Notes under the pieces: generated by a model
Databases searched by the model: none
The model's input: only the letters and a program-made list of their open reading frames with translations
Told to the model about the DNA's origin: nothing
Made by a program: the position numbers and the translations under genes
IMG/VR virus record: IMGVR_UViG_3300001213_000018
Reading direction: 5' to 3' (one strand)
From: a virus
Length of the DNA stretch: 17,821 bases
In this document: one piece after another, positions 7,389 to 13,256 of the stretch
How positions within the stretch are numbered: the first letter of the stretch is position 1
How the letters are laid out: each line of letters starts with the position of its first letter

Positions 7389-7766
7389 TTATACGCTCCG
7401 AGCGGCTTCTACCGCGTCTGCGATTTGGCTTTCGTTGAATCCCCGGTTCATGAGAATAACCTTGATGATGCGGGGATATTGGGTGTAGGCGATTTGATAC
7501 TGAGTGGCGAGAATGGCGAGTAGGTGGGAGGTTTCACAATCCACCAAACGAACCCACCGTAGCTGGTGTTGAGGGCAAGCACCGTTGCAGTGCGTCAGTC
7601 CGTGCTTGCCATAAGTACCCCACATGGTATTCAGGGTGGTTTCATCCATGACCGGAGGGGTTGGCACGGGGATTCTGTCCTGCACCGTAAGAGCCGTGGC
7701 TACAGGAGCAACGGTCAACGCTGCGGTTGTCGCGACTGCTGCCGTTAGAAAGTTTCTCCTGTTCAT
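7389..7766 (-). CDS. Tat-signal (twin-arginine) secreted protein of unknown function, 125 aa. Starts MNRRNFLTAAVATTAALTVAPVATA.
   Basis: ATG at 7764-7766 with SD GGAGGA at 6-nt spacing. RRNFLT matches the S/T-R-R-x-F-L-K Tat motif, followed by a hydrophobic h-region and an A-x-A-like cleavage site. The ORF-track N-terminal extension to 7799 lacks an SD. Confidence 0.55.
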   Translation of the reverse strand: MNRRNFLTAAVATTAALTVAPVATALTVQDRIPVPTPPVMDETTLNTMWGTYGKHGLTHCNGACPQHQLRWVRLVDCETSHLLAILATQYQIAYTQYPRIIKVILMNRGFNESQIADAVEAARSV

Positions 7767-7775
7767 CCTTTTCCT

Positions 7776-7813
7776 CCAAAATAGTCGGGGCTCGGCCACA
7801 CCGCCTCGCCCCG
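7776..7813 (-). terminator. Candidate intrinsic terminator after ku: 6-bp GC stem CGGGGC/GCCCCG with a 16-nt loop, then ACTATTTTGG on the minus strand.
   Basis: Inverted repeat at 7786-7791 and 7808-7813. The T-run is only 4 nt and the loop is long, so this is weak. Confidence 0.25.
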
Positions 7814-7835: not shown

Positions 7836-8804
7836 TTAGGCTGCGGCACCCTTCGCCTTGCCCTTGCTGGCTGTCAGAGCGCCGGTCAGAAGCGACATCA
7901 AGTCCATCTTCTTGTCGGCGACCGGAGCAGGAGCCAGAACTGGCGTGGTCGGAACCTTGCCCATAATCTTGTCGTTGATGAGACCCTTGTACTGGCGGAT
8001 GCTCAGGTCAGAGTAGTCGGCGACGTTGAACGTGCCAGTCATGGAGGCGACCAACTGAGTCGCGATGTCCACCAGAGCGGCTTCGTTCGCACCATCGAGG
8101 TTGACCTTCGTCCACTTGTCGCATCCGCGAACTTCGTTGTCGAAGTACAGGTAGCTGACAATCATGCCACCATCGGTGCCGTAGGGGCGGATAACGACCG
8201 TCTCTTCGCGGCCACGCTGGCTGGTCTTGGCGATGGCGACTGAGTTCTGTTCGACCATTGCCTGACGCAGGATGGCGAAAGGAATCTCGAAGCCCTTTTC
8301 GGGGGCGATGTACTCGGACGCGGCATAGTAAACCGGGTCGATTTCGTTCACGTCAACGAACTTCTCGATGGGCATCGCGTCAGAGTGAGAAACTTGGCAA
8401 GCCTTCTTCTCTGCATCGGTGACCACAGCGAACTTGCCGTCTTCGTACTGGTAGCCCTTGAGCATCGCTGCCCGTTCAACTTCCTCGCTGCAAACTGGGC
8501 ACTTCATCGCACCCTGCTTGAGTTGGTTGTAGGTGGGCTCGGGGGCCGTCTTGCCGTCCGCAATCGCGGCGTCAATCGCGGCATGATTGCAAGCATGAAT
8601 CAGGTTGAGTTCAACCTTCTCCTGCTCGGTTGCCTTGAAGGTCTTAACCTTCATGGTCAACGCGCTAAAGCTAAGAGTACCTGTCCACGTCGCACGAGAG
8701 ACCATTGCCTTCTCGGCGGGGGCGGTGCTCAACTGTGGCTTGGTGGGGGCGAGGCCAGCGGTGAGTGCCGCAGCCAAAAGGTCGGTTTGTGTCATGGTTG
8801 CCAT
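7836..8804 (-). CDS. ku: Ku-like DNA end-binding protein (NHEJ Ku homologue), 322 aa.
   Basis: SRATWTGTLSFSALTMKVKTF matches the bacterial Ku N-terminus (R-A-I-W-K-G-x-I-S-F-G-L-V-x-I-P-V-x-L-Y). LIHACNHAAI...KCPVCSEEVERAAMLKGYQYEDGKFAVVTDAEK matches the B. subtilis YkoV block LHKEDHAPIKYEKVCTNCEK...IVKGYEYVKGKYVVLTDEDLK. ATG at 8802-8804 lies 6 nt after the -10 hexamer of P2 (leaderless). Confidence 0.8.
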   Translation of the reverse strand: MATMTQTDLLAAALTAGLAPTKPQLSTAPAEKAMVSRATWTGTLSFSALTMKVKTFKATEQEKVELNLIHACNHAAIDAAIADGKTAPEPTYNQLKQGAMKCPVCSEEVERAAMLKGYQYEDGKFAVVTDAEKKACQVSHSDAMPIEKFVDVNEIDPVYYAASEYIAPEKGFEIPFAILRQAMVEQNSVAIAKTSQRGREETVVIRPYGTDGGMIVSYLYFDNEVRGCDKWTKVNLDGANEAALVDIATQLVASMTGTFNVADYSDLSIRQYKGLINDKIMGKVPTTPVLAPAPVADKKMDLMSLLTGALTASKGKAKGAAA

Positions 8805-8810
8805 ACTAGT

Positions 8811-8860
8811 AGTATACCGGGACGGCCACCGTTTTGGCTACCTTTTTGCTAATTTTTTCG
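8811..8860 (-). promoter_or_regulatory. Conserved promoter copy P2: -10 TATACT at 8811-8816, -35 TAGCCA at 8835-8840, 18-nt spacer, A/T tract at 8843-8860.
   Basis: Minus-strand reading: CGAAAAAATTAGCAAAAAGGTAGCCAAAACGGTGGCCGTCCCGGTATACTACTAGTATG. Confidence 0.6.
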
Positions 8861-8867
8861 AAAAAGT

Positions 8868-8906
8868 TAAGGAAAAAGACAGGGGGAGCCATGATTAGGC
8901 TCCCCC
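8868..8906 (-). terminator. Rho-independent terminator of the rIIA-rIIB unit: perfect 9-bp stem GGGGGAGCC/GGCTCCCCC with a 7-nt loop, then TGTCTTTTTCCTT on the minus strand.
   Basis: Inverted repeat at 8882-8890 and 8898-8906. T-rich tract at 8868-8881 on the transcribed strand. Confidence 0.6.
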
Positions 8907-8909
8907 GTT

Positions 8910-8948
8910 GACACGGCAGGATTTAGGAGAGGAGAGACTGCCGTGTCC
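8910..8948 (-). other. Perfect 10-bp inverted repeat GACACGGCAG/CTGCCGTGTC with an 18-nt purine-rich loop (GATTTAGGAGAGGAGAGA), just downstream of the rIIB stop.
   Basis: Seen directly in sequence. No T-run follows, so it is not a classical terminator. It could be an RNA processing/stability hairpin or a protein-binding site. Confidence 0.4.
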
Positions 8949-8960
8949 AGATAAAACCAG

Positions 8961-10238
8961 CTAAAAGTCCTCGTCTTCGTCCTCATCATCCCACACTTCC
9001 TCGTCGTCCTCTTCTGTGCTGCTATAGGCCGCACCGGGGGTGTAGGCGTTCGTGTTCTTCGCGGAGGGGCGAGGGTAGGAAACCCCGGCCTGACCGATGT
9101 CGTTGTTGCCCTGAAGGCTGGCAATGGCAATCAGAAGCTGGTCAATGACATCCTGAGAGGGCTTCAAGCACCGCTCGGCGTTGTAGGTCTCTTGCAGCGA
9201 CAGACCAGCAGCCTTGGCTACCTGCCCCAAGGTAAGGCCAGCAGCCTCACGAGCGAAACGGAGCGGGTTGTCGAACAGCTTGGACTTGGACGGTGCTACG
9301 TCCATCCGGCTGAACTTGCGGAGCCAGCCCACCAACCGCTCGGTGGATGCCTTACGGAAGCTTGCGGCGGTCAGCTTGCCACGCCGCATGAGACGCTTCA
9401 CGGTCGGCAGAGCCTTGACCTTGCGAATGATGTCAGGACGCTCGTCCGGAATCTCAATCACCGCTTCCATCATCACCGGAGCATCACCTTCGCCACGGGA
9501 CACCATTTGGTCGGGCTCGATTTCGCCGGTTACTTCATACGTCCAGCAGCGACCTTTGCTGAACCCGTAACCCTCGGGAATCGCAACCACGTCAGCCGGG
9601 TTTACCTTGACAGTCATAAGGTGGTCACCGTTCGACAGGAAGTTCGGAATGTAGCCGCGAGAGCAGAAGTGATAACCACGAGAGCACTCGTTGCGACGGT
9701 CGGGGTCAACAGCAGAACGAGCCATCAGGGGCCGGGCACCGATGTGATTGTCCACGGTACCTGTGTGCTTGTCCTTGTAGTTCGCACGGACGACCTTGTA
9801 GGCCACAAAGCAGCCGTCAGAAGTCAGGCAGAAGCGACCGGAGTTCAGCCACTCATAGACCTCGTTGACTGTTGCCATGTCGGGCTGCTGGTACAGGTTG
9901 TCCATGAACCGAAGCATGTAGTCAACCTTCTGACCATGCTCCATCAGTTCCATAATCTTGGCTGTCAGGACGTTCTGAACCTTGTTGCCCTTGTAGAAGA
10001 TGCCTTCCTTGGTCACCTTGACCTTGCCGTGCGACTTCTGAGCGATTTGCTGCGTCACGTCCAGCAGCTTGGGAATACGGCCCCACTGCTGCTTTTCGAG
10101 TGCCTTCTTCAAAGCCTTGAACGTCGGTTGAGAACTGCTCACCGGAACCTGCTCCGGCACTCCGTTCCGAGTCACAATCACGGACAGGAAGTCCCGCTGA
10201 AGTACATAAGGAATTGCGCTTGCATTTGTGCTAGGCAT
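8961..10238 (-). CDS. rIIB: rIIB protein homologue, 425 aa, with an acidic C-terminal tail.
   Basis: ECSRGYHFCSRGYIPNF vs T4 rIIB TCSRGLHVCSKSYIRHF. NPADVVAIPEGYGFSKGRCWTYEV vs HPRDVVSIPIDYNDAKMRTCQYEV. FVAYKVVRANYKDKHTGTVDN vs FYAWKVVRSNYFDCHSNTFDN. ATG at 10236-10238 overlaps the rIIA stop by 8 nt (ATGCCTAG). SD GAGGAGAGAG. Confidence 0.8.
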   Translation of the reverse strand: MPSTNASAIPYVLQRDFLSVIVTRNGVPEQVPVSSSQPTFKALKKALEKQQWGRIPKLLDVTQQIAQKSHGKVKVTKEGIFYKGNKVQNVLTAKIMELMEHGQKVDYMLRFMDNLYQQPDMATVNEVYEWLNSGRFCLTSDGCFVAYKVVRANYKDKHTGTVDNHIGARPLMARSAVDPDRRNECSRGYHFCSRGYIPNFLSNGDHLMTVKVNPADVVAIPEGYGFSKGRCWTYEVTGEIEPDQMVSRGEGDAPVMMEAVIEIPDERPDIIRKVKALPTVKRLMRRGKLTAASFRKASTERLVGWLRKFSRMDVAPSKSKLFDNPLRFAREAAGLTLGQVAKAAGLSLQETYNAERCLKPSQDVIDQLLIAIASLQGNNDIGQAGVSYPRPSAKNTNAYTPGAAYSSTEEDDEEVWDDEDEDEDF

Positions 10239-12732
10239 TGACTACCTCTCTCTCCTCATCAATTGCAATTACGTTGTTGGTAAGAACGAGCCGCTTGCGC
10301 TGTTCGTCCACTGACCGAATGTAATCAACCATGATGGTCTTCTCTTCTATAGTACAAGAGCCATACGACTTTCGGTCACAAATTTTCAAAATTGGGTACT
10401 GACGGTACACTTTTTCCCATGCCTTGCTGAAATCGGCAGTGTTGTCAATCGTGATACCGAAGTGCTTAGCGAGGGTTGACAGGTTAACGAAACCAGCACG
10501 GTCAGTCTGCTCGGCTTTGTGCAGCAGCATAGCAAACTGGCGAACGGGGCTGTCCACTGAGAGCACCATCGGGTGCTCTACCACGTATTCCAGAACCGGC
10601 TTCCACTCTGACGAGAACGGCTTTACAGTCAGGCTCATTGCCATCTGCTTCGCCGGGGTCAGTTCAGCCGCTACCCGTGCCTTGACGAATGACGTGAACT
10701 CTATGTAGTTCGGGTCAGCCAGCAGTTTCGACCCAACCTTGATGCCGAAGATAGGCGTGGTGGAATCAATCTCAGGGAACAGGTCAGAGTCGCGAACCTC
10801 GTTAACGAACTCCACAAAGGTACGACCGTCGCGAACCTCGTTAACGAACTCCACAAAGGTACGACCGTAGTAGAAGTTGCCCACGACGTTCACGGGTTCC
10901 CCGCCATTCACCACTGCCACGTAGAACTTCGTTGCACTGAAGTCATTCAGCAATGGGTTGTCGTCACCCTTCTTCCACTGCTTTTTCCAGCCGGTGTTGC
11001 GACGTGTGTTCTGTGCATACCGATGCAACTGGCGGATGCTCATACGTTCACGACGAATAACCTGCTCCGCCTTTTCCTGCTTCATCTGTGGGTCGTACTT
11101 AACTTTCAAGTCAGACGCCTTCAACGCCGGAGGATTACCGATTGAATCCAGCAGAGAGATAGCCTCGTCCCCCGCACGATTCATACTGACAGCCTTGTTC
11201 ACCCGTTGAAGCACGATGGCCTTGCTGTACTTGGCAGACAACTCACGGTCGTTTTGGAGCATGAAGTTGACGTACTTGTCGGCGGAGCCACGAGCTATGT
11301 CGTGAATTACAAACACAGTCCGCTCGTTCACTTCGAATTTGATTTCGTAGTCAGACTTCTTCGACACGCCAGCAGCCACGTCACGCAGTGCAGCCACACG
11401 CTTGAAGTTATCGGCAGTCTCGAACAGGGCTTCCTTCTTCGCCTTGCGCTTCGCCCGGTCGTTGTGGCGGAATTCAATTGCGGTGATGTTGTTGTAGTCC
11501 AGTTCGTTGACAGCAACCTTCGCACCCTTCAACTTGAAGGACTTGTACTTGCCGTCCAGCATACCCTTGTTGAATGCATCGTTGACGAGGGCACCGAGGC
11601 CAGACTGCATCATCAATTCGTGAATCTTGAGACGTGCTTCCCATCCTGTCGGGCAAGCATCAACCTTGGCCTTGACTTCCTCCATCAGCTTGTCCTGCAC
11701 TACATCCAGACGTGCAAGAATGTTGGTAACCGTCTTTGGGTCCAACTGAAGGTTCTCACGGTTTGCAGCCACGTTCAGGTCGCCGATGTTGAAGAACAAG
11801 TCAATCGGCATTTCGACCAGCTTTTTCTGTGCATCCGACAAACGGCTCTGGTCAATGTTGCCGACGCTGTAAGGAACCACACCCGAGATTGCACGGAGAC
11901 CATAGCCACCCTGTGCTGTCTGTGCGTTGGTACGCATACCCCATAGTTCGCTCTGAACCGAGTAGGTAGAAACGTTGACGCTGACTGACTTCTCCCCGAT
12001 GAAAACCGGCTTGGGCTGGAAGAATTCAAACACGGTCTTGGCAGTGTTCTCAAATTCCCAAATGTCGCCGGAGGCAACCGGGAACTTGATTTCAACACCG
12101 TTCGGTACGTCTGGCGAATCCACAACCATGTCGAGCGAGGTCGCAGGGAAACCATCCTTCACACGAGCGGTGTAGAAGTAGGTCTTACCCTCGTAGTGGT
12201 TCGCGATGTTGAAACCACCCGTCTCTTTGTCGCCGGTCTGTGAATGTTTGTTGATGTAAGCGAAGGGGCTCTTCGAGCCGAGGCCGAGGGCACCAATGAG
12301 TTCATTCGAGTGATGCTTGTCCGAAGCGAAGTAGGTGCAACCTAGACGCATCACAGCGTCGTAGTCACCCGTAGCATCGCAAGCTTCGCAATAGGTCTCT
12401 GATGCAGACCCCTGACCGACAATGCCGGTACCATTGCATTCTTCGCAACCGCCCTTGATGAACTTGAAGCCGGTACCGTAATCCTTGATTTTGAAGATGG
12501 GTTCGAACTGAGTGGGGAGTTGAACTTCGAAAGGCTCATGCTTTTTGCCAGCCGCCACATGGGCGTCGTAGGCATTGCATGATAGTTCGCGGATAACCGC
12601 TTCAATCTTGCGGCTGTACAAGCCGTTGGACATGATGTCAAAGCTGATAGCGGTGGCTGCGATGCGGTAGTTCTTAGGGGTTGAAATCCCCCCTGAGACT
12701 TCCCCGTCTTTTCCTTGCGCTCCAAGCTGCAT
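10231..12732 (-). CDS. rIIA: rIIA protein homologue, 833 aa, with an N-terminal GHKL (Bergerat-fold) ATPase domain.
   Basis: NGLYSRKIEAVIRELSCNAYDAH vs T4 rIIA [23 protein letters not shown] (GHKL N-box E-x-x-x-N-x-x-D-A). DYGTGF is the G1 box. GALGLGSKSPFAY vs T4 GGFGLGSKSPFSY is the G2 box. Start taken as the ATG at 12730-12732 with SD AGGAGAG. The ORF-track GTG at 12750 sits 2 nt from the -10 hexamer and cannot be the start. Confidence 0.8.
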   Translation of the reverse strand: MQLGAQGKDGEVSGGISTPKNYRIAATAISFDIMSNGLYSRKIEAVIRELSCNAYDAHVAAGKKHEPFEVQLPTQFEPIFKIKDYGTGFKFIKGGCEECNGTGIVGQGSASETYCEACDATGDYDAVMRLGCTYFASDKHHSNELIGALGLGSKSPFAYINKHSQTGDKETGGFNIANHYEGKTYFYTARVKDGFPATSLDMVVDSPDVPNGVEIKFPVASGDIWEFENTAKTVFEFFQPKPVFIGEKSVSVNVSTYSVQSELWGMRTNAQTAQGGYGLRAISGVVPYSVGNIDQSRLSDAQKKLVEMPIDLFFNIGDLNVAANRENLQLDPKTVTNILARLDVVQDKLMEEVKAKVDACPTGWEARLKIHELMMQSGLGALVNDAFNKGMLDGKYKSFKLKGAKVAVNELDYNNITAIEFRHNDRAKRKAKKEALFETADNFKRVAALRDVAAGVSKKSDYEIKFEVNERTVFVIHDIARGSADKYVNFMLQNDRELSAKYSKAIVLQRVNKAVSMNRAGDEAISLLDSIGNPPALKASDLKVKYDPQMKQEKAEQVIRRERMSIRQLHRYAQNTRRNTGWKKQWKKGDDNPLLNDFSATKFYVAVVNGGEPVNVVGNFYYGRTFVEFVNEVRDGRTFVEFVNEVRDSDLFPEIDSTTPIFGIKVGSKLLADPNYIEFTSFVKARVAAELTPAKQMAMSLTVKPFSSEWKPVLEYVVEHPMVLSVDSPVRQFAMLLHKAEQTDRAGFVNLSTLAKHFGITIDNTADFSKAWEKVYRQYPILKICDRKSYGSCTIEEKTIMVDYIRSVDEQRKRLVLTNNVIAIDEEREVVNA
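10791..10868 (-). repeat. Perfect 39-bp tandem direct duplication (2 copies, 10791-10829 and 10830-10868) inside rIIA. It is in frame and duplicates 13 aa (GRTFVEFVNEVRD x2).
   Basis: The unit cgcgaacctcgttaacgaactccacaaaggtacgaccgt occurs twice back to back with zero mismatches. Confidence 0.85.
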
Positions 12733-12752
12733 GGTTTTTCTCTCCTGCACCT

Positions 12753-12800
12753 AGTATACCGGAGACTCCAGCTTTTTGGCTACAAATTTGAAAAATTTTT
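12753..12800 (-). promoter_or_regulatory. Conserved promoter copy P3 driving rIIA-rIIB: -10 TATACT at 12753-12758, -35 TAGCCA at 12777-12782, 18-nt spacer, A/T tract at 12785-12800.
   Basis: Minus-strand reading: GAAAAATTTTTCAAATTTGTAGCCAAAAAGCTGGAGTCTCCGGTATACTAGGTGCAGGAGAGAAAAACCATG. The TAG stop of the upstream gene is the TAG of the -35 element. Confidence 0.6.
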
Positions 12801-13256
12801 CACTTGTTTTTCAACAGGTGTGTTTTCAATAGAAATTCTTATGGAACGGAGCCATTCTATGTCCTTGGAAGTGAAGGTAACAGGCAGATTCGAAGAACAA
12901 TGCTGCTCACTCCAGAACTCTTTGGCAAGGCCACAATGAGCACACAGGTTTGGGTATTTCAAACTAATAACATGCCCGGTCGGGTCGGCCATGTCCACAC
13001 CGTTGCAGAGTGGCTGTTTCATGTACAGGCGAAGGCCGCAGTCACGATGGAAGTAAGTGTCTTCCTTGCAATTGGGGCAGAGCCGCTTCACCCATTGGCT
13101 AGTCGGGTCAACGTCCTTAGTGCAATAGTGGCAACTATGAAGAACTGGGGTTTCCGTCGCAGCGGTTCTGATAAAGCTGACAGCGGCGATGAGGGCTGTA
13201 CCGACAATGATAATGCCGGAGTACCAAAGAACGACAATTCCAAGAGTGGCAAGCAT
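12780..13256 (-). CDS. Membrane-anchored Cys-rich (zinc-finger-like) protein, 158 aa.
   Basis: ATG at 13254-13256 with SD GGAGGA at 6-nt spacing. N-terminal TM segment LGIVVLWYSGIIIVGTALIAAVSFI. Then HSCHYC...CPNC...HRDC...CAHC clusters. Confidence 0.55.
   Translation of the reverse strand: MLATLGIVVLWYSGIIIVGTALIAAVSFIRTAATETPVLHSCHYCTKDVDPTSQWVKRLCPNCKEDTYFHRDCGLRLYMKQPLCNGVDMADPTGHVISLKYPNLCAHCGLAKEFWSEQHCSSNLPVTFTSKDIEWLRSIRISIENTPVEKQVKNFSNL

Follow-up and report, generated by a model that had tools for sequence, protein, structure and literature searches.

A bacterial-type Ku protein of uncultured phages, its probably leaderless promoter and its link to a minimal phage DNA ligase

The stretch of viral DNA analyzed here (17,821 nucleotides (nt), IMG/VR virus record IMGVR_UViG_3300001213_000018; referred to below as the window) carries on its minus strand a gene for a bacterial-type Ku protein. 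The gene lies directly downstream of rIIA and rIIB homologues encoded on the same strand, from which it is separated by an intrinsic terminator and by a promoter of its own (Table 1). Our analysis indicates that the Ku mRNA is very probably leaderless and that a minimal ATP-dependent DNA ligase, encoded on the same contig beyond the window, is probably evolutionarily linked to the phage Ku clade to which this protein belongs. Related loci and proteins are designated by L and P numbers, respectively.

The Ku protein and its distribution

The 322-amino acid (aa) product of the gene matched the Ku family of Pfam over aa 45-230 (PF02735, E 6.5e-31, 108.1 bits with a cut-off of 25) and the bacterial Ku equivalog of NCBIfam (TIGR02772 Ku_bact, 178.5 bits vs a cut-off of 150), thus scoring above the cut-off of both models, and in addition matched PHROG 4873, 'Ku-like DNA end binding' (E 1.9e-30). 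When a profile of the Ku clade was compared with the PDB, Ku from Bacillus subtilis (9vnq, E 2.5e-44) and Mycobacterium tuberculosis (8v53, E 3.8e-38, and 9i91) was retrieved. The same three structures were the top matches (E ~1e-13), followed by Ku70/80, in a Foldseek search with an AlphaFold2 (AF2) model of moderate confidence (predicted local distance difference test, 63). These matches bear out the original prediction of a Ku homologue, which had been made from the sequence of the window without database searches. As judged from them, the product is a bacterial-type Ku, for which a ring-forming homodimer binding double-stranded DNA ends is predicted.

The Ku core is preceded by a clade-specific extension of 36 residues, in which an amphipathic helix, read from the AF2 secondary structure, and a disordered linker can be distinguished. 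The linker bears a conserved KPQLSTAPAEK motif (TAPAEK core), in which T27, A30, E31 and K32 were invariant across the clade in our alignments. In a search of 1.84 billion representative proteins with the Ku profile, approximately 35 clusters matched the profile from positions 1-11, while ~12,000 ordinary Ku clusters matched it from position 41-45 only. The extension can be regarded as a mark of the phage Ku clade that is absent from cellular Ku. The core itself carries in its beta-barrel region an insert whose HxCxH...CxxC motif aligns with the HxxH...CxxC of M. tuberculosis and B. subtilis Ku and is a possible candidate for metal binding (H70/C72/H74...C102/C105). Some members of the clade (P0011-P0014, P0016-P0019) have lost the cysteines of this insert, so that the motif is not essential throughout the clade. 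Near the C-terminus, K298-KMDLMSLLTGAL matched in alignment the DLMxAL-type motif of bacterial Ku that binds LigD, with M303 and L306 being nearly invariant, and this minimal C-terminus is followed by a short basic tail and by no longer one. In M. tuberculosis, the C-terminal region of Ku was found to touch both the polymerase and the ligase domain of LigD (bioRxiv 10.64898/2025.12.12.693941).

The exact Ku protein is recorded on a JGI contig of 413,469 bp, where most genes are small, have no known function and lie on one strand. The order rIIA-rIIB-terminator-promoter-Ku was held in every relative with sufficient flanking sequence. Ku homologues at 45-94% identity were all metagenomic, and relatives are present in IMG/VR. 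A scan of 185,579 representative GTDB genomes with the Ku-clade profile returned zero relatives and gave no prophage or host clue. Likewise, a megablast search with the entire window produced no match in 50,697 phage records and thus no isolated relative, and the Ku-like matches in these deposited records were restricted to mycobacteriophages (~25-27% identity) and one uncultured fragment. The rIIA-rIIB neighbors, the 413-kb contig, the relatives in IMG/VR and the absence from GTDB together corroborate the earlier assignment of this Ku to a phage. Scans of the window for tRNAs and Rfam families returned nothing.

The Ku promoter and its class

The -10 box of the Ku promoter, TATACT at 8816-8811, is separated by only 6 nt from the ATG at 8804, which begins 7 nt past the -10 box and has no Shine-Dalgarno sequence ahead of it. 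In an ungapped alignment of the upstream regions, GGTATACT-N6-ATG(G) was invariant in 11 distinct relatives with Ku proteins that are 47-85% identical, although the six nucleotides between GGTATACT and ATG took 10 different sequences among the 11 distinct loci. Altogether, the ATG was located exactly 6 nt past TATACT in 16 loci, corresponding to 11 distinct sequences. The A-tract and an AAA after the -35-like box were nearly invariant across the 11 loci, while the -35-like hexamer itself varies, and the 5' end of the predicted Ku transcript is weakly structured. Because the distance from the -10 box to the start codon is fixed and leaves no room for a ribosome-binding site, the Ku mRNA is very probably leaderless, with its predicted start at the A of ATG 8804. 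The claim that Ku has a leaderless promoter of its own is therefore well borne out by the invariant arrangement in these relatives. In Ku loci that are more distant (<=41% identity), the gene has an ordinary leader with a site of the AAGGAG or GGGAG type, which makes the leaderless arrangement a trait of a sub-clade.

Three other ways of reading the gene start were considered. An internal start at M34 (MVSRATW, the canonical N-terminus of bacterial Ku), which would imply a leader of ~100 nt, was rejected since the 36 upstream residues are conserved as protein down to ~37% identity (TAPAEK), and since M34 is unconserved beyond the closest relatives and the spacing between -10 box and ATG is invariant. 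A second ATG at 8795 is less likely to be the start, as the conserved ATG is the one 6 nt past TATACT; its equivalent in L022 is ATG 4488. Gene calls that begin inside the promoter (those in L020, L007 and L022, and GTG 12750 for rIIA) were judged spurious for the same reason.

From the sequences, the promoter class is not special to Ku. Its consensus (A-tract, TAGCCAAAA, ~11 nt, CCGGTATACT) occurs in five copies on the coding strand of the window, Ku's included. The ATG follows after exactly 6 nt in three of them, while the other two, among them that of rIIA, have leaders of 17-20 nt with GGAGAG sites. A search for GGTATACT with one mismatch allowed yielded 13 matches vs 5.4 expected, a number reached by none of 200 shuffles. 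The class was also found at many sites in L020, L023, L024 and L025, and about half of all copies are leaderless (6 nt to ATG), the rest having 17-24-nt leaders with GGAGAG-type sites. A clean consensus is thus available for a class of leaderless genes in these phages. Because of the common consensus, Ku shares its regulatory class with rIIA-rIIB, and since the promoter is sigma-70-like, the immediate-early expression that had been suggested for Ku is plausible. In L002, Ku is flanked by two proteins with sigma-70 region 4 (sigma70_r4; L002:9293-9820, 11276-11938), candidates for phage sigma factors or for regulators of an anti-sigma-like type, which might read this promoter class.

A phage DNA ligase linked to Ku

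The open reading frames (ORFs) of the window contain no ligase, polymerase or phosphoesterase domain (Pfam, PHROGs and NCBIfam searches with ~20 ORFs; Pfam list for all called genes), and the original prediction that no LigD lies in the window is literally true. It is misleading, however, in that a phage ligase is encoded ~3.9 kb past window position 1. In L020, a 273-aa ATP-dependent ligase was found 8 kb downstream of Ku, and a search with this protein returned P0050, an ATP-dependent DNA ligase of 267 aa encoded on the same 413,469-bp contig and the same strand as the window Ku. The start of the P0050 gene lies 11.75 kb downstream of the Ku stop, an offset that was computed with a shared gene for an 818-aa protein as anchor, and its DNA was read from a second sample (L024:3850-4653).

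P0050 matched PF01068 DNA_ligase_A_M with 48.5 bits (cut-off 26.2) and has the ligase motifs I (KHNGHR), III (DGELV), IIIa (FYIFD), IV (EGIVSK), V (WKLKF) and VI (RYDK), the key residues of which were invariant in 20 homologues. In motif I, N replaces the usual D and is conserved across the ligase family. From the full motif set, P0050 is predicted to be catalytically competent. Its best NCBIfam matches were the LigC-type PRK08224, NHEJ_ligase_lig and LigD, and the closest solved chain was the ligase domain of M. tuberculosis LigD (1vs0). Ligases of this family were also read on large contigs of 156 and 328 kb, and members of the cluster come from contigs of up to ~435 kb. The ligase gene is preceded by GGTATACT-N6-ATG in four of five divergent genomes and is thus predicted to be expressed from the Ku promoter class, likewise without a leader. 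No polymerase or phosphoesterase domain was detected in the genes of the window or of the fetched neighborhoods. The candidate partner of Ku is accordingly a minimal ligase and not a multidomain LigD of the kind for which a search of the rest of the genome had been proposed earlier.

Ku and a ligase of this family share one contig in other phages as well, at a spacing of 15 kb in L018+L025, 5.7 kb in L003/L004/L017 and 2.5 kb in L040. Moreover, the two genes are bicistronic in viral contigs of high G+C content (GC) that were found by scanning IMG/VR with the ligase profile (L032-L035, L038, L039). Ku in these contigs is 37-38% identical to the window Ku, belongs to the same clade, has the same N-terminal extension and ends 5-10 nt before the ligase start; rII genes were not detected in the fetched high-GC Ku-ligase loci. 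The GC of the linked loci was 43%, 45%, 52-55% and 63-64%, and the link was found in every locus with enough sequence except L041. The Ku-ligase distance of 2.5-15 kb in the rII-linked genomes could by itself reflect a colinear early region. Such synteny cannot account for the high-GC pairs, however, given their spacing of 5-10 nt and the lack of detected rII genes in the fetched loci. Adjacency of ku and ligD is the classical gene-pair signature that first linked these two genes in bacteria. On the strength of gene order and sequence, the ligase appears to be evolutionarily linked to the phage Ku clade. A 282-aa gene beside Ku in L041 was considered as a diverged ligase and rejected (hhalign probability 0.1%, weak PTH2-like Pfam match).

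Proposed function and comparison with known systems

The reading that we favor, with a probability of roughly 0.6, is that Ku and the minimal ligase constitute a phage-autonomous module for end joining or end protection. In such a module, a Ku dimer would thread onto phage DNA ends, at the termini of the genome or at breaks introduced by host nucleases, and would shield these ends from exonucleases and hold two of them together. Ku would then recruit the phage ligase through its C-terminal DLM motif and/or the clade-specific N-terminal arm, and the ligase would seal the break with no need for host LigD. The physical interaction of Ku and ligase and the biological role of the pair, be it repair of nuclease breaks, circularization or end protection, are what we infer from the genes. 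A more specific version, which we put forward tentatively and regard as less likely than not, is an undescribed phage-autonomous end-joining system in which a Ku clade marked by the conserved N-terminal arm operates with a minimal LigC/LigD-like ligase devoid of the polymerase domain, the part of LigD that Ku normally engages in bacteria, and the N-terminal arm serves to recruit the ligase. In huge and other uncultured phages, this system would reseal breaks caused by restriction or CRISPR, or join genome ends, independently of host non-homologous end joining (NHEJ).

Several observations weigh against a joint module. P0050 consists of a nucleotidyltransferase and an oligonucleotide-binding (OB) domain only, with neither polymerase nor phosphoesterase. 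Its scores in the LigD/LigC models of NCBIfam are 68-76 bits vs cut-offs of 228-373. In the window genome the ligase gene is not beside Ku, as ~23 unrelated small genes and a separate promoter lie between, and in L041, with a Ku of 29% identity, no such ligase was found within 10 kb downstream. The linkage in the rII genomes, taken alone, may reflect only their colinear early region, and P0050 may be a replicative ligase, since ATP-dependent ligases are common among the replication genes of jumbo phages (PMC7824862).

Some of these points would fit a role of Ku in end protection only. In that case, Ku would cap genome or concatemer ends and block exonucleases of the RecBCD/AddAB type, while the ligase would be replicative and its linkage to Ku a matter of synteny or coincidence. 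Such a role is known from Mu Gam, a phage relative of Ku that is expressed early, binds DNA ends, protects linear phage DNA and acts purely as an end protector (PMC1378119). It would also agree with the wide distribution of ATP-dependent ligases among jumbo-phage replication genes (PMC7824862), with the position of Ku next to the counter-defense genes rIIA/rIIB and with the separate transcription units of Ku and ligase in the window genome. We nevertheless consider end protection as the only role rather unlikely, since the high-GC contigs pair Ku and ligase within 5-10 nt with no rII detected, the ligase is nearest to NHEJ-associated LigC/LigD ligase domains and not of the T4/T7 type, and Ku retains the C-terminal motif by which bacterial Ku binds LigD. 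Gam itself is much shorter and constitutes a separate Pfam family, for which no match was obtained as the Pfam scan of the 322-aa protein returned the Ku family only; the window protein, by contrast, has a full bacterial Ku core and a linked ligase.

The conserved LigD-binding motif would also suit the model known from the mycobacteriophages Omega and Corndog, in which phage Ku recruits host LigD so as to circularize a genome bearing short cohesive ends. As a rule, packaging in huge phages that have rII genes follows the headful mechanism and requires no joining of cos ends, which counts against this model. Moreover, the phage encodes a ligase of its own, and the linkage of this ligase to Ku extends over several phage groups. 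Because this ligase is present on the contig and apparently evolutionarily linked to the Ku clade, the host-LigD reading, which the original prediction had raised beside end protection, can no longer serve as the default, and we regard it as improbable. Omega and Corndog (clusters J and O) are described as pairing a phage-encoded Ku of the bacterial type with host LigD, on which they rely (PMC12848934, citing Pitcher et al. 2006), while the window phage has a ligase of its own. Omega and Corndog are also cos siphoviruses of ~110 kb, in contrast to the ~413-kb rII-carrying phage, and the window Ku is only ~25-27% identical to mycobacteriophage Ku, which lacks the N-terminal extension, tblastn alignments beginning at query residue 26-37. 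Finally, Ku could interfere with the host and join nothing, by binding degraded host DNA ends or by competing with host Ku/NHEJ or nuclease defenses. Host NHEJ can act against phages (PMC12848934), and a host target could be contacted through the clade-specific N-terminal arm, acting as an adaptor. Interference would, however, leave the tight pairing of Ku and ligase genes unexplained, and we consider it very improbable. The joint module and these alternatives are not mutually exclusive.

A module of phage Ku and phage ligase would resemble the bacterial two-component NHEJ of Ku and LigD in several respects. The phage Ku core belongs to the same family, as its best sequence and fold matches indicate, and keeps the conserved C-terminal motif; the ATP-dependent ligase is nearest to LigC/LigD ligase domains; and the genes are adjacent in some phage relatives, like ku-ligD in bacteria. 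In contrast to the bacterial system, the ligases of the phage family are only 256-273 aa long and lack primase-polymerase and phosphoesterase, the phage Ku has an N-terminal extension of ~36 aa and a short basic tail only, and the system is phage-encoded and absent from the representative genomes of GTDB, with the two genes 11.75 kb apart in the window genome. A concept comparable to break repair by the phage ligase was put forward for PhiKMV, whose ATP-dependent ligase repairs CRISPR and restriction breaks as a counter-defense (bioRxiv 10.64898/2026.09.21.753257). The abstract of that preprint credits repair to the ligase alone and does not mention Ku, whereas the window phage has a Ku gene with genetic linkage to the ligase.

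Examples of phage Ku have so far been those of mycobacteriophages, in which LigD is supplied by the host. If our reading is correct, a Ku clade of uncultured phages, some with genomes of ~400 kb, together with its own minimal ligase would represent self-contained viral end joining. It would be a candidate for a broad counter-defense against DNA-cutting immunity, which would be timely in view of the rescue by a phage ligase alone described in the PhiKMV preprint. It would also constitute a natural experiment in the recruitment by Ku of a ligase with no polymerase domain, and a compact two-protein end-joining tool (~320 + 267 aa) for bacteria that lack NHEJ.

Flanking transcription units

Table 1. 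Features of the Ku locus and its surroundings. Positions are those of the window unless a locus label is given; SD, Shine-Dalgarno sequence.
Feature	Position	Strand	Description and evidence
Ku coding sequence	7836..8804	minus	322 aa, ATG start at 8804; domain, profile and fold matches
N-terminal extension, clade-specific	8697..8804	minus	aa 1-36: amphipathic helix aa 6-16 and disordered linker
Insert in beta-barrel region	8490..8597	minus	H70-x-C72-x-H74 ... C102-x-x-C105; alignment, PDB alignments
Ku 'minimal C-terminus'	7875..7913	minus	K298-K-M-D-L-M-S-L-L-T-G-A-L310; alignment with bacterial DLMxAL motif
Ku promoter	8811..8860	minus	A-tract 8860-8851; TAGCCA 8840-8835; 18-nt spacer; GG+TATACT 8818-8811
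-10 boxes of the promoter class	14685-14680, 12758-12753, 8816-8811, 3053-3048, 286-281	minus	
rIIA-rIIB promoter, Ku-promoter class	12753..12782	minus	TAGCCA-18-TATACT; 20-nt SD-containing leader
rIIA homologue	10231..12732	minus	First gene of upstream operon; PHROG 612 RIIA, E 1.2e-87
rIIB homologue	8961..10238	minus	PHROG 609/11221 RIIB, E 5e-61; PF26926 Phage_T4_rIIB
Hairpin right after rIIB stop	8910..8947	minus	10-bp stem, CU-rich loop UCUCUCCUCUCCU
Intrinsic terminator of rIIA-rIIB transcript	8871..8906	minus	GGGGGAGCC-loop-GGCTCCCCC, then T-run
Imperfect GC hairpin after Ku stop	7776..7813	minus	Hairpin, then ACUAUUUUGG
Next gene after Ku	7389..7766	minus	125 aa, twin-arginine (TAT) signal MNRRNFLTAAVATTAALTVAPVATA, own SD GGAGGA
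Genes past the ligase, same genome	L024:6304-7026, 8871-10646, 10688-11707		His_Phos_1 histidine phosphatase, NAD synthase, 339-aa HNH + RNA-ligase fusion

The likely start of rIIA, ATG 12732, is located 20 nt past its -10 box with the Shine-Dalgarno sequence GGAGAG ahead of it. The rIIA-rIIB transcript ends in the terminator upstream of Ku, the stem of which (8906..8882) has 9 bp, eight of them G-C pairs, and is followed by TGTCTTTTTC. This is the sole strong minus-strand terminator within the window, and relatives carry an equivalent GC hairpin with a T-run, which confirms the upstream terminator that had been assigned from the window alone. A second hairpin, which immediately follows the rIIB stop, is part of the rIIAB transcript and not of the Ku unit, and the region comprising both hairpins folds with z = -6.6. 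The post-rIIB hairpin was found in nine of 11 relatives (among them L023, L022, L018, L002, L006, L007, L008 and L011), where the stems have changed yet still pair and the loop UUCUCUCC is conserved; it was absent in L020 and L015, and no Rfam match was obtained for it. Located at the 3' end of the rIIAB transcript, the hairpin may represent an RNA element that acts in regulation or binds a protein. Its loop, UUCUCUCC(UC), is complementary to the GGAGAG ribosome-binding sites of rIIA and other leadered genes.

The C-terminus of rIIB is a strongly acidic tail that includes an aromatic residue (...EEDDEEVWDDEDEDEDF; 8961-9015, minus strand), and similar tails (EWDEDDEF, DWDDEEDDF and EEDWDED) were obtained when the 3' ends of relatives were read in frame. 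By analogy, this tail recalls the C-terminal tip of the single-stranded DNA-binding protein (SSB), a protein-docking peptide. rIIB also showed a weak match to HTH_31 at aa 326-368.

Downstream of Ku, a hairpin at 7813..7786, followed by ACUAUUUU, is imperfect (z = -1.9) and could represent a weak or partial terminator or a stabilizer of the mRNA 3' end. Stronger, perfect hairpins are present at this position in L023, L018, L002 and L022, and none in L020. None of the five genes that follow Ku has a promoter of the TATACT class. Ku had been described as a monocistronic unit bracketed by a terminator upstream and a possible one downstream. The upstream terminator supports this description, whereas the downstream hairpin is imperfect and absent in one relative, and because of its weakness and the lack of class promoters at the next five genes the monocistronic nature of Ku is unproven. 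Transcription from the Ku promoter may continue into the adjacent gene, which encodes 125 aa. The TAT export signal of its product is unusual for a gene in a phage early region. A homologue with 58% identity follows Ku in L007, and in L018/L019 a DUF7736 protein of similar size, which gave no tblastn match to the 125-aa protein, occupies the post-Ku position.

Other genes around Ku and the ligase

The 818-aa protein used above as anchor is encoded between Ku and the ligase at 3338-5794 on the minus strand and matched the shoulder domain of Major Vault Protein (MVP; E 1e-22) and the Vault_3 repeat (8e-11) of Pfam, its aa 433-738 matching solved chains of rat and human MVP with E ~1e-14. This MVP-like gene is kept between Ku and ligase in the relatives L018, L002, L026, L029 and L031. 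A single earlier report describes viral homologues of MVP, which come from gut phages (bioRxiv 10.1101/2023.11.10.566534).

A 164-aa protein encoded at 5889-6383 (minus strand) has a weak match to the peptidyl-tRNA hydrolase PTH2 (E 0.006), and Ku in L041 is likewise followed by a PTH2-like gene. The gene at 835-1395 (minus strand) encodes a membrane protein of the UPF0114 family that is conserved in relatives.

The best match of the ligase among isolated phages was to an Acidobacteria phage (26% identity), a weak host hint from which no host is claimed. Of the genes beyond the ligase (Table 1), the HNH + RNA-ligase fusion likewise has a leaderless TATACT promoter, and the phosphatase and RNA-ligase genes may provide a phosphatase for end healing or form a distinct set for RNA repair. 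In the high-GC contig L033, genes of the His_Phos_1 family also lie on both sides of the adjacent pair of Ku and ligase (L033:6348-7625, 11827-12852).

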